Assembly (NCBI GenBank): GCA_951406725.2
Contig: OX597815.1
Span: 109,678,001 to 109,742,000 of the forward strand
Direction of reading: 5' to 3'
DNA length: 64,000 nt
From: Octopus vulgaris
Taxonomy: Eukaryota
The first letter of the stretch is position 1; the number at the start of each line of letters is the position of its first letter. Shown piece by piece: positions 10,170 through 61,320 of the stretch. The notes under the pieces are model-generated. The model was not told where the DNA came from and did no database searches. It saw nothing but the letters and a program-made list of their open reading frames with translations. A program made the position numbers and the translations under genes.

Positions 10170-10685
10170 TGAATATTCCCATCAAAGCTTCTGTCAAATG
10201 TAAGCATAATATTTTCCCATCAAAGCTACTATCAAATGTAAGCATAACATAAATGTAAGCCTGTTTGGGACAGAGGAGCAAAGGTATATACCATCATAGA
10301 GGTCAGCTGCCCTACAGATATAAATATCTCTTTGAAAATCAAAGAAAAAGAGGATATCTATGGACAACTGCTTCGAAACCTCCAGCTTCTATATTCAGAC
10401 AATGAACTCATATTCACACGAATAATAATTGGAACAATAGGTTTTGTTAGTAAATGCTTAAAGGAGAATCTGGAGAAACTAGGATTTTCAGAAAGGGAAA
10501 ATTACCGGCTGATTCGTACATTACAGGTCCAGTCTGTGAGTGGAAAAGTAAAAATATGCAAAACTTTTCTCAAGTTCCGAATGTGAATTTGTCTCTGTTA
10601 ACTACATCCCAAAGATAGAGCTTTGTATCTTTGTTGGAAACCGGCTCCATCCTCAGTGGAAGATCTATAATAATTAAAAAATAGA
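10170..10685 (+). mobile_element. 5'-truncated RLE-type non-LTR retrotransposon (R2/R4 group) 3' end with 3' UTR, in TG/CA microsatellite
   Basis: NIPIKASVKCKHN, then VWDRGAKVYTIIEVSCPTDINISL continuing into ORF 10332-10586 (KIKEKEDIYGQL...IIIGTIG...LQVQSVSGKVKICKTF). 3' UTR hairpin CAAAGATA/TATCTTTG. Confidence 0.8.
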
Positions 10686-17588: not shown

Positions 17589-17745
17589 ATTCTCAAACGA
17601 AGGATAATACTTATAATAATTTCTGAATAGGATAAACTACTCCTATTTTGCAGAGAAAAGTTTTGGCGGCCAACACTTTTTTCTGCAGAATAGGGGTAGT
17701 TTAACCTGTTCGGTCTATATTATAAACATTGTTCTACGTTTGAGA

Positions 17746-17832: not shown

Positions 17833-17925
17833 TCTTTTCTTTCGTTTCCTGAGCGTCCAATAACACAGTACTTATTCTACGTCCACGCGTTGTTTTTTCT
17901 TGCTTGTTCATGTTTGGATTGACTA
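17833..17925 (+). mobile_element. Truncated copy (3' part, downstream of the ribozyme motif) of the element at 38790-38999
   Basis: tttcctgagcgtccaataacac..tactt.ttc.acgtcc.cgcgttgtt...ttcatgtttggatt.acta matches the reverse complement of 38790-38890. Confidence 0.8.
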
Positions 17926-19036: not shown

Positions 19037-20054
19037 CTGAGGCTGCGAGCTGGCAAAATCGTCAGCGCGTCAGACGAAAATGCTTAGCAGTATTTCGTCT
19101 GTCTTCACGAAATAGTCCAAACAATGTACATGATAACACTTCCAGTTAGTTAATATCAGAAGCCATGAGTCATTGTTTGATACTACACCTGGGAACTTAT
19201 CATCATCATCATCCTCATCATCATCATCATCATCCTCATCCTCATCATCATCATCATCATCCTCATCATCATAATCATCATCATCATCTTTTAGCATATG
19301 GTGTTGTGATACCGGTATAATAGGCGTTAAGTGTAGTGCAGATAACACAATTTGGCAGTTTACTTACTAAAAATACCAAAATATATGGAAAATACATTAG
19401 CAACAGGTGTGCTTAATTGTAGTGTAATACCCATACTTCGTAATAGTTTTACCTGTATTCAACATACCAAACATTCGCATATTATTAACAGTTGAAGAAC
19501 TACATGCATCGTATTTATTTTAACTAATAAATTAATATTACTTTGTAATCTATAAACCTTAGATAATAAATTATATTACTTCGTAATCTATAAGATTCCA
19601 TCATTGGATTTTATCCTTAATAACTCTATATTAGTGTTTTTAGCATATCGATAAATTCTTTTAAATATTATCATAATTATTATTATTATTATTGCTATTG
19701 TTATTAGCAGCACTACTCGACGAAAATTGTTTCATTTTTATACTTAGAAGCATTATATGTCATATTAATCTCTATTTATCGTACTAATCGAAAAAGAATT
19801 TTTTTTTATATTAATAGAGAGTTTACTATTCGCAGCATTTGCTTTTCAAGTATAATTTTATTGAGATAATTAAGACATGCATCATTAGATATAGTAATTG
19901 GAGATTCTTCAGAATTCTTGATACTATAATTAGAAGTTACATTAGTATTCTTAGAAAAGTTAATGTGGTTAATTATTATTTTGAATTTGGTATTAGATGT
20001 ATACATCGTTTTTGGGATGTACACAGTGTCATTTTGAGTACATTTTTGCTCGAG

Positions 20055-20460
20055 AAGAAAAAGCTTGGACTCGCTACTATAGAGATATAAAGAAACTTGA
20101 GGCATTAAACATGTTTTGTCTGCGGCATATCTGCAACATAAAATGGCAAGATAAGATATCAAATGTCAAAATTTTAGAAAATTGTGATATCACCATTATC
20201 GAAAGCCTGTTGATGAGAATTCAGTGCAGAGGGGCTGGACAAGTTCGAATGCAAGATGATAGCATTCCGAAAATTCTTTTGTATGGTCAACAAGTAGAAA
20301 GACTCTGCAGTAAGGGAAGACCCATCCTTAGATATATGGATGAGTTGAAGCAATCACTAAAATCTCAATAGATTAATTTAACATCCTGGGAATGTTATTG
20401 CCCAAATCGATCTGGGCAATATGTGATATGTTTCACCAATCTGAGTTGAAGAAACAACAA
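20055..20460 (+). mobile_element. RTE (BovB-like) LINE RT C-terminal fragment
   Basis: ORF 19997-20371: EKAWTRYYRDIKKLEALNMFCLRHICNIKWQDKISNVKILE...RMQDDSIPKILLYGQ...GRPILRYMDELKQSLK, a classic RTE C-terminus. Confidence 0.9.
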
Positions 20461-29281: not shown

Positions 29282-29470
29282 GCCGAACAAAATGCTTAGC
29301 AACATTTCGTCCGTCTTTACGTTCTGAGTTCAAATTCTGCCGCGATCGACTTTGCTTTTCATCCTTTCGGAGTTGATAAATTAAGTACCTGTTGAGTACT
29401 GGGTCGATGTAATGAACTAGTTCCCTCACCCCCAAAATTTCACGCCTTGTGCCTATAGTAGAAAGGATTA
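29281..29470 (+). mobile_element. SINE family B flanked by (ATT)n on both sides
   Basis: cgccgaacaaaatgcttagc...ctgagttcaaattctgccgcgatcgactttgcttttcatcctttcggagttgataaattaagtacc...gccttgtgcctatagtagaaaggattatt. Confidence 0.9.
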
Positions 29471-38789: not shown

Positions 38790-38999
38790 ATAGTTAATCC
38801 AAACATGAAAACACAAAGAGAAAACACAACAACGCGAGGACGTGGAACAAGTATAGTGTTATTGGATGTTCAGGAAAGGAAAGAAATAAGGAGGATTTAA
38901 CGTTTCGAGCGGAGCTCTTCGTCAGAAACATAGAAAAAGGAAAGATCCAAAGAAGGGAAGACGGAGGAAAAAATCGCCAACGATGCACACGCGGTAACG
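38790..38999 (-). mobile_element. ~210-bp non-coding hammerhead-containing element (Penelope-derived / retrozyme-like)
   Basis: Contains the motif at 38896-38928; partial paralog at 17833; same layout as the 16541/50881 family. Confidence 0.7.
38896..38928 (-). ncRNA. Minimal type-I hammerhead ribozyme motif
   Basis: UUU-CUGACGA-A-GAGC-ucc-GCUC-GAAAC-GUU-AAA: intact CUGANGA and GAAA cores, 4-bp stem II, palindromic ACGU stem III, UUU/AAA stem I. Confidence 0.7.
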
Positions 39000-42915: not shown

Positions 42916-44388
42916 CATATTGTATGTATGCATAAATATATAAATATAAACATACACACACACGCGCACACATTTCCTCTGAACAAGTCAAGGATGCTTG
43001 TTGATGTTGTTTCTTGACTTGAAAGACAAATATCCCTTAAATCAGACCTTGCCATCTTTAAGTGAAAAATCAGTAACAAAAATAAGAAAACCTTATCTGA
43101 TAATGTTGTCCTAGATACACAAATGGCTGCTTGTTTAGCACCCTATCGACTTGACCATTCAAGCAATTTACTGCTACAACAAAAGTTTTGATTATTTTTA
43201 TCTCAGAAACACTCTCTAAAATGACTGAATATAAATTCACGATCTATCAGTTGTGTGATTGACGATACCTGATCGATACCCTTTTATTTATCTGTCTCTT
43301 TATTGATTCTTCAATTTGATACATTTTTTCTCTGTAGAGATTTTGATGATGGTACTTTAATGTCACCAAACAATTCGTCGATCTACAATTGTTGGGTAAA
43401 CGAAAGCAAGGTTACTGTGTCAGAATGCTCGAGTATATATAAATATGAACAGATTTCTCTCCCTCTCATATGTTGTAACGTTTTATCTGGTAAACTTTGT
43501 ACGGATACATTATATCATTACCGTTTGATCTAAACAATTGGTATTACACACACATGATAGTTTCTTCATATTCCCCAAGTAAGGAAAAGTAAATAAAACT
43601 TAAATTTGTTAAAATCGTTGAGCTTTCGAAAACCTAAGTGTAGCTTATAATGGATAAAGCACAGACATACTAAAAGATATGGTTGACAACACCCTCAGAC
43701 GTAACTGACTATTTTGTTAGAAATAATCCAGCATTTGAGTAGTTAACTTGGAAAATCAAAGAAATGTTAGTGTTTATTATAATCGTATTGGCCTCGTATA
43801 TTTGCATATAATCATAAATTGTGTTTGTAAAGAGGGTGTATGCATTTTAAATTATCTTTAGTAAGGACATTTTTATCATTTTCTAAGTATTATCTGGAAG
43901 AGCTGTTCTAATTTTTGTTACGTTGTCAGAGTTACTATAAAGTCAGATACCATAACTTGTGGTATTTGTTCCGTACCACCATGTTTTTGATTTGAAGTAA
44001 ATTTCGCTGAGGTCGGACGATGATAATGTATAAATGTATACATGCATGTTCAATGGGATTTAAATGCGGATCGTATCTGCCACTAAATACTGCAAGGATA
44101 ATTTCTCTTGAACTAATAAGCATCGATTCAGCTCGCAACTCCCGTTAGTGACGAATAGGCGCCATATCTTGTGTATTAAAACCTTGCGAAAAAATATTCT
44201 CTCCACAGACTGGCATGAAAGAGGTGTGAGAGAAGCCATCTAATTACTTCTAGACTGTTTCATTCAGCGACCCTACAAGGATGAAAAGCTCATTCTGGCA
44301 GGATTTGAATGCTCAGAGTATCACTAAATAGTCAATCCGACAGTTTAATCTCCCTCTGGAAACTAAACAGTTCAGAGTACATATACAT

Positions 44389-44556
44389 AAAGAAATGGAG
44401 TTAAACGTAGGTGTTATTCAAATCTTTATACTTCCGACATATGTTTCGAATAAACCATGGGTATTATTCCATTTGGAATAATACCAATGTTTTCTTCGAA
44501 ATACATGTCGGAAGTATAAAGATTTGAATAACACCTGCATTTAACTCCATTTCTTT
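44389..44556. repeat. 168-bp palindrome (83-bp arms, 2-nt spacer, 7 mismatches by manual count)
   Basis: aaagaaatggagttaaacgtaggtgttattcaaatctttatacttccgacatatgtttcgaa...ggtattattcca|tt|tggaataatacc...ttcgaaatacatgtcggaagtataaagatttgaataacacctgcatttaactccatttcttt. Confidence 0.95.
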
Positions 44557-44717
44557 TTTTATCAGCTATACAAAAACATTTCACTAAACCCTGGAATTTC
44601 TACCTTTATAAAGTAGGCTGTAACATCCTTGGTACTTATGTGAACTTTTTGCTACCCTGGTAACAATTTTTTTTTTCGTGTTATTTGTACACATTGGAAA
44701 AATACACATACACTTGT

Positions 44718-44786
<69 letters not shown>

Positions 44787-60644: not shown

Positions 60645-61320
60645 TGACCTTTGCTTTACATTTGTACAAGTTCGCTCCGAGTCTCACCCAGAGACCTCAA
60701 GAGACAACAAGTTGGAAGTTCATGTTGGTGTTATGCCTGGGGTGCCATATATTTGGTTTTGTACTTAGTGTTGTACTAGTGAATGCCTAAAAAAACATAC
60801 AAAAATTATGTTTGTTTTAAAATTTGAGATTAAATAGAAAGTATTTTGCATAGGATATGAGCAGTTCCCATGAGCATTATCTTTTGAATTTCTGCCATTT
60901 TGGGGTTTCCTGGTATCTGAGTTAGGTAGCAATCAGCCCCTTTTGCTATCATTCCAAGTGCACCTATGACAACAGGTGTTGTTTTAGTCTTCAGGTTCCA
61001 CATTTTTTTGATTTCTATTTCAAGATATTTATCTTTGCTAAGTTTTTGGTAGGTCTTGACAGATACGTTTATATCGATTGGGAAACTCATATCAATGAGG
61101 ATGCATGTTTTTTGTCTGATGTCTTTCAATATGATTTCTGGCCTATTCGCGTCTATCTTTCTGTCAGTTTGAATGGCGAAGTTCCAGAGGAGTGAGTTGT
61201 TGTCATTTTCAAGCACTGGGGGTGGTTTGTGTTCCCACCAGTTTTTATCATGGAGCAAGTCCAGGCTTTTGCAAATTACTCAGTGAATATATTGTGCAGC
61301 TCTATCATGCCTGTTGAGAT
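60645..61320 (-). mobile_element. R4/Dong-type LINE 3' portion (RHD motif and restriction-like endonuclease) between (TAA)n runs
   Basis: RHDRAAQYIH*VICK, then ORF 60830-61258 WWEHKPPPVLEN..LLWNFAIQTDRKIDANRPEIILKD..CILIDMSFP..PVVIGALGMI..QKIMLMGTAHIL. Confidence 0.93.

Follow-up and report, generated by a model that had tools for sequence, protein, structure and literature searches.

The palindrome at 44389-44556 of the window (the whole 64-kb stretch of DNA that was analysed) can be read as two head-to-head, 5'-truncated ends of a high-copy hammerhead repeat joined at the apex of stem II, and we hold with roughly even confidence that it arose when a Penelope-type reverse transcriptase/endonuclease primed at either side of a cut made in AT-rich DNA. 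What was directly seen is a pair of arms, relatives that lack the palindrome, a junction placed at the apex and a tail on one side only. By analogy with published insertions, this most likely represents the known Penelope-type layout and not a new system.

The arms (44389-44471 and 44474-44556) are paired at 76 of 83 positions and reach 89 nt at 90% identity in a repeat search. Folded as RNA, the + strand attains -107 kcal/mol, whereas 200 shuffles average -28.4 (z -20.3) and none of them is equally stable, and the palindrome is the top complex inverted repeat with a spacer below 40 nt in the window (score 62; runner-up 30). The near-perfect 83-bp arms of the original prediction are therefore a real inverted repeat, but the 2-nt spacer that it proposed was not upheld: since relatives have C at 44473 (88-100% of their depth), the true arms measure 82 bp and the native loop 4 nt. 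Each strand reads GAAA-(CAUAU or UACAU)-GUC-GGAAG, and a scan for CUGANGA...GAAA on both strands gave no match at the palindrome locus and six elsewhere in the window; the sequence and the core scan thus bear out both the motif and the lack of its CUGANGA half, as had been noticed earlier. The type I hammerhead core is consequently incomplete in this copy, which is an inverted pair smaller than one monomer, and a tandem array is absent at the locus. BLAST of 44201-44720 against the 64-kb window revealed no second copy of the arms. At the gathering score Rfam yielded no match; relaxing the limit to an E value of 10 brought up 44, every one of them sub-threshold and no hammerhead among them, the best scoring 58.6 bits (threshold 94). 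The parts of the locus are the following.

44330..44378, no strand: left flank on the target side, single-copy and AT-rich, with flat depth of 50 (run X2) and 37.9 (run X8)
44389..44470, - strand: short arm, delimited by arm pairing, an inverted, 5'-truncated repeat end (3' strand of stem II, GAAA, helix III, cut site, downstream flank); its outer edge is uncertain, from 44379 to 44389, as family pieces begin at 44379-44398
44436..44447, - strand: GAAA-helix III-GUC of the short arm, palindromic ACAUAUGU as in the family majority, assigned from the sequence and the relatives
44464..44481, + strand: native apical hairpin of stem II, which is the junction palindrome, with a 7-bp stem and a 4-nt loop in + orientation, assigned from the fold, the divergence of relatives right before 44464 and loop variants at 44471 and 44473
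44482..44497, + strand: lower stem II, 3' strand, which in relatives pairs with a 5' strand that is missing here (5 bp, 2x2 loop, 6 bp), assigned from the duplex energy and shuffles given below
44498..44509, + strand: predicted hammerhead GAAA, helix III and GUC triplet; private changes at 44502 and 44504 break the palindromic helix III of the family on this arm
44510..44562, + strand: segment 3' of the predicted cut, up to the common family 3' end near 44556-44562, where depth drops and contigs exit
44563..44676 (maybe to about 44686), + strand: one-sided tail of about 115 nt with a T-run at its end and no open frame, common to a subset of relatives

The surrounding genome is AT-rich and rich in microsatellites. 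Elsewhere in the window, a motif unrelated to this one but also hammerhead-like lies at 38885-38945 on the minus strand; its core is complete (CUGACGA, an extra A, a 4-bp stem II, GAAA, palindromic ACGU, UA) and agrees with the minimal PLE consensus. The flank downstream of it is similar to 17835-17890 (+), where the core is lacking. A second long hairpin lies at 17601-17740 on the + strand (-71.2 kcal/mol, z -14.1); most of its arm differences leave G-U pairs on this strand, it has no Rfam match at the gathering score and it may be a structured RNA or resemble a MITE. A common repeat, presumably SINE-like, is present in decayed form at 44255-44325 (+), some 65 nt away from the short arm, and at 29300-29400 (minus), the two copies being 76% identical across 46 nt. 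The open frames 10248-10586 (+), 60830-61279 (-) and 19997-20371 (+), which we take to resemble fragments of non-LTR retrotransposon proteins, gave no meaningful match in a Pfam scan.

Relatives were sampled from public sequencing runs, 20 of 24 of which contain part of 43700-44700 (four organism codes). In four of them, 1267, 1566, 1201 and 1333 contigs aligned to 44460-44690 at 80% likeness, and in four runs 1271, 1105, 10 and 109 contigs aligned to 44330-44510. The peak summed depth is about 6,000 times that of the unique left flank (327,050 vs 50 in X2; 239,835 vs 37.9 in X8), which is read only as a family of thousands of copies, summed depth itself being no copy number. At least two subfamilies are distinguished by linked changes at 44517, 44520 and 44521, present in about one third to two thirds of the depth and useful as markers for comparing the arms. 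Scans of metagenomes with patterns of the family returned no loci.

The relatives match the window from 44464 onward and differ before it. Their loose ends upstream of this point include one 30-nt consensus starting with GAUGA (agreement 0.76-0.82), found in 70 of 1267, 44 of 1566, 46 of 1201 and 49 of 1333 contigs; these counts come from 24 of 464 loose-end rows of the 44460-44690 alignment, in which most contigs end short of 44464. The same consensus was recovered with 44330-44510 (34 of 1271, 28 of 1105, 2 of 10 and 5 of 109 contigs; 23 of 189 rows), and run X16 has GACGA in its place, a change at the free N position of CUGANGA. GA-N-GA and the 5' strand of stem II were thus present upstream of the hairpin in all six runs. 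The non-palindromic relatives that had been anticipated do exist and carry, of the expected CUGANGA, the GA-N-GA part, any CU lying beyond the 30 nt read.

This upstream strand pairs with 44482-44501 through 5 bp closed by G-C next to GAAA, a 2x2 loop and 6 bp, giving a duplex of -13.1 kcal/mol that 15 of 5000 mononucleotide shuffles equal in strength, and 11 of 200,000 shuffles had GA-N-GA immediately 5' of a 5-bp helix that closes with the C preceding GAAA. In the usual position numbering of the hammerhead (G10.1-C11.1, A9), stem II of the relatives is closed by G10.1-C11.1, with GAAA next. The family majority at 44502 and 44504 reproduces the palindromic helix III of the short arm, with 2 bp and a palindromic tetraloop, and helix III and the NUH triplet are present as palindromic ACAUAUGU followed by C in both the family majority and the short arm. 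The predicted order in the relatives is the canonical one (GA-N-GA, stem II, GAAA, palindromic helix III, GUC). The family is thus predicted from sequence to carry a type I hammerhead with a long stem II, its 5' core being read as GA-N-GA only, in the 30 nt upstream of 44464. No depth step was detected at the predicted cut site, nor a pile of starts or ends, among the family contigs of the aligned runs. As the relatives have C at 44473 and A or C at 44471, the native apex is a 7-bp stem with a 4-nt loop; the centre of the palindrome, which had been taken for stem II, is indeed its native apical hairpin but only the apex of a longer, interrupted stem.

In the window, the switch to the inverted copy falls precisely at the base of this apical hairpin, and the apex loop is retained in + orientation. 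Among 32 listed pieces of the family, a longer-biased sample with 2499 further pieces outside it, two cross the apex as palindromes, namely record 21 of X2 (44383-44501, 17 differences) and record 30 of X8 (44390-44510, 19 differences); this amounts to one of eight listed pieces in each of these DNA runs and none of eight in each of the guessed-RNA runs X16 and X17. Record 30 satisfies the 31-letter bridging rule at its centre and record 21 is two letters short of it. Because their outer flanks are unlike those of the window, both records probably derive from other loci, and the turn at the apex seems to recur, as a minority form, among the listed pieces. Opposite-strand joints from either alignment were left out of the evidence; those in contigs aligned to 44330-44510 are mostly native contigs that overrun the end of the query and continue on the mirror arm. 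Flaps can be trimmed, so the junction shows a place at which the ends were able to pair and need not be the point at which copying ended.

The outer ends of the two arms differ. Across 44556-44563 depth goes down about 5-10-fold; in each run 18-33 contigs depart here into poorly agreeing, AT-repeat-like letters, and 19-35 go on past 44563 into a common tail; in X2 and X3 the contigs leaving at this point look partly mixed with tail contigs. Tail depth is kept to about 44676, with a T-run at the end. The end of the short arm (44379-44389) mirrors the common end of the family, and this arm carries neither tail nor host flank. A one-sided tail of the published type, between two fixed 3' ends, is therefore present, here of about 115 nt. 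Downstream of the hairpin each of the three frames is closed, and neither the tail nor the locus has an open frame. A direct repeat matching at 7 of 8 letters at 44377 and 44687 was equalled in 474 of 2000 random stretches, so that as a target-site duplication it is not significant against such stretches.

In PMC3846280, EN+ Penelope-like elements display head-to-head inverted ends, a junction palindrome and a one-sided tail, interpreted as the result of self-priming, and PMC8557442 gives a scheme of the same insertion layout. According to PMC11167929, a purified element from the anole cuts and extends both target strands in vitro, AT-rich DNA being preferred, and initiates reverse transcription from two positions that delimit the tail; cleavage by the hammerhead was dispensable for insertion in vitro. 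At the present locus, a Penelope-type reverse transcriptase/endonuclease would likewise prime from each side of a cut, again in AT-rich DNA. One cDNA would start at the common end of the family near 44560 and give the short arm, and a second, started at the tail end near 44676-44686, would give the long arm; the self-complementary apex would let the 3' ends of both cDNAs anneal and repair would seal the junction, with loss of CUGANGA, stem I and all upstream sequence.

Two-ended priming is preferred since it gives a reason for the short arm to stop at the family end, which is where many relatives exit into (TA)n-like letters and depth falls 5-10-fold. Against the Penelope reading, no RT/GIY-YIG open frame could be tied to the family and the locus and tail lack any open frame, the tail is about 115 nt compared with a published 30-40, the candidate target-site duplication is at chance level and the core read in the relatives stops at GA-N-GA, short of CU and stem I. 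Both arms carry the same alleles at the polymorphic sites 44517, 44520 and 44521, which fits a single template and hence also a fold-back.

Such a fold-back, in which the 3' end of a single cDNA snaps back at the apex and copies itself and an endonuclease cut at the arm/tail border resolves the product, is a possible but tentative alternative. It accounts for a junction exactly at the base of the native hairpin and for subfamily alleles common to both arms, the antisense end folds as DNA (-3.7 kcal/mol), and self-priming is how such palindromes are read in PMC3846280. On the other hand, an extra step is required for the copied arm to halt at the family end and not run through the tail, and the in vitro work has both strands primed, with two start sites in use (PMC11167929). 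The fold-back or template switch at stem II that had been proposed from the sequence agrees with the position of the junction at the base of the apical hairpin, but the end of the short arm near the family end fits two-sided priming at least equally. Neither is this route a novelty, as the self-priming reading of head-to-head ends was in print in 2013 (PMC3846280).

A solo copy could also have been made palindromic later, by a replication template switch or a hairpin-capped break at the 7-bp hairpin, independently of retrotransposition. The short hairpin is available as a seed and a convincing target-site duplication is missing, but the short arm stops at the family end without tail or host flank and two paralogous contigs turn at the same apex, which makes this origin improbable. 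It is quite improbable, too, that the ribozyme of the family is a rearranged split-core form instead of a type I hammerhead, or that the motif is no ribozyme at all: although the sequence read in the relatives stops short of CU and stem I, GA-N-GA, stem II, GAAA, palindromic helix III and GUC follow in canonical order and there is no CTGA within 44510-44690. Members of a MITE family are symmetric and have common terminal inverted repeats. A palindromic MITE or a microRNA hairpin, suggested by a long hairpin within a high-copy family, is highly improbable and on sequence grounds appears largely refuted, the MITE reading failing on relatives that are non-palindromic and asymmetric, the tail being one-sided and no Rfam family reaching the gathering score.

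All seven differences between the arms are private to one arm with respect to the family majority, four on the left (44408, 44451, 44455, 44459) and three on the right (44502, 44504, 44539), which fits arms that were identical at insertion. The arms differ by 8.5% (Jukes-Cantor distance 0.09, about 0.045 per arm), and on the scale given in PMC13282606, where 0.09 equals 25 million years, the palindrome would be roughly 12 million years old, with a wide error and provided that the host is an octopus. A-to-G on the + strand accounts for none of the seven differences and T-to-C for one; fossil editing thus appears to be absent at the palindrome, which lends no support to the suggested role as an ADAR/Dicer substrate. 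In X16 and X17, family contigs are present with no cover of the left flank and none of the 16 listed pieces is palindromic across the apex, so that these runs are silent on expression, and their letter differences fall at sites that vary in the DNA runs too and are uninformative on editing. The hairpin would be dsRNA only if transcribed. Altogether, the palindrome appears to be an old insertion that has decayed since, a stub that alone would not self-cleave, and this single locus is probably inert.

Among the known systems, the Adineta elements Pen2, Pen2a and Pen3a, whose insertions have an inverted pLTR (PMC3846280; scheme in PMC8557442), share with this locus an inverted, 5'-truncated copy placed head-to-head, an overlap of the inverted and direct copies and a one-sided tail, and in Pen2 a short junction palindrome as well (18 bp, compared with 18 nt here). 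Unlike them, our locus has no open frame, a tail of about 115 nt instead of 30-40 and no convincing target-site duplication, and its junction palindrome is assigned to the apex of a hammerhead stem II. The green anole's Poseidon PAc (PMC11167929) resembles it in the AT-rich target, the two fixed 3' ends around the tail and the hammerhead in the end repeat; however, the PAc open frame starts at stem II, with start sites 111-118 nt into it, whereas here the three frames are closed.

In canonical metazoan type I motifs, helix III is described as 2 bp long and capped by a tetraloop that is palindromic (PMC4209133, PMC7229834). The parent of the present copy may be the end repeat of an autonomous element or a retrozyme that codes for nothing. 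Animal non-LTR retrozymes with type I hammerheads (PMC7229834; bioRxiv 10.64898/2026.07.22.740005) are likewise non-coding, have this helix III and have been proposed to originate from Penelope elements; the present copy departs from them in being a sub-monomer inverted pair without a tandem array and in its long, interrupted stem II, compared with about 4 bp. The minimal metazoan pLTR hammerheads (PMC4209133) show the G10.1-C11.1 pair, an enlarged helix II and a palindromic helix III region, as here, but the majority consensus of our family is without the unpaired base between A9 and G10.1 (GAUGA abuts the stem) and its helix III is larger. Motifs of the family gave no hits in the searched supplement files of PMC8557442, PMC13282606 and PMC4209133, and the repeat library of PMC13282606, which lies outside the searched file, may already hold this family. 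In titles, abstract openings and passages, with few subscription journals covered, no literature was found that places a junction palindrome in a hammerhead stem II or describes this repeat family.

How Penelope-like elements form their inverted ends is unsettled in print (PMC3846280, PMC11167929), and this copy shows that a palindrome at such a junction can belong natively to the fold of the hammerhead. As a wider and still doubtful proposal, the apex of stem II might serve as a preferred splint for joining two cDNA ends, so that the fold of the ribozyme would set the turn site and repeatedly seed perfect long hairpins, future ADAR/Dicer substrates, throughout an octopus-like genome. In a family of thousands of copies, simply counting the positions of the junctions and the alleles of the arms could tell two-ended priming and fold-back apart.
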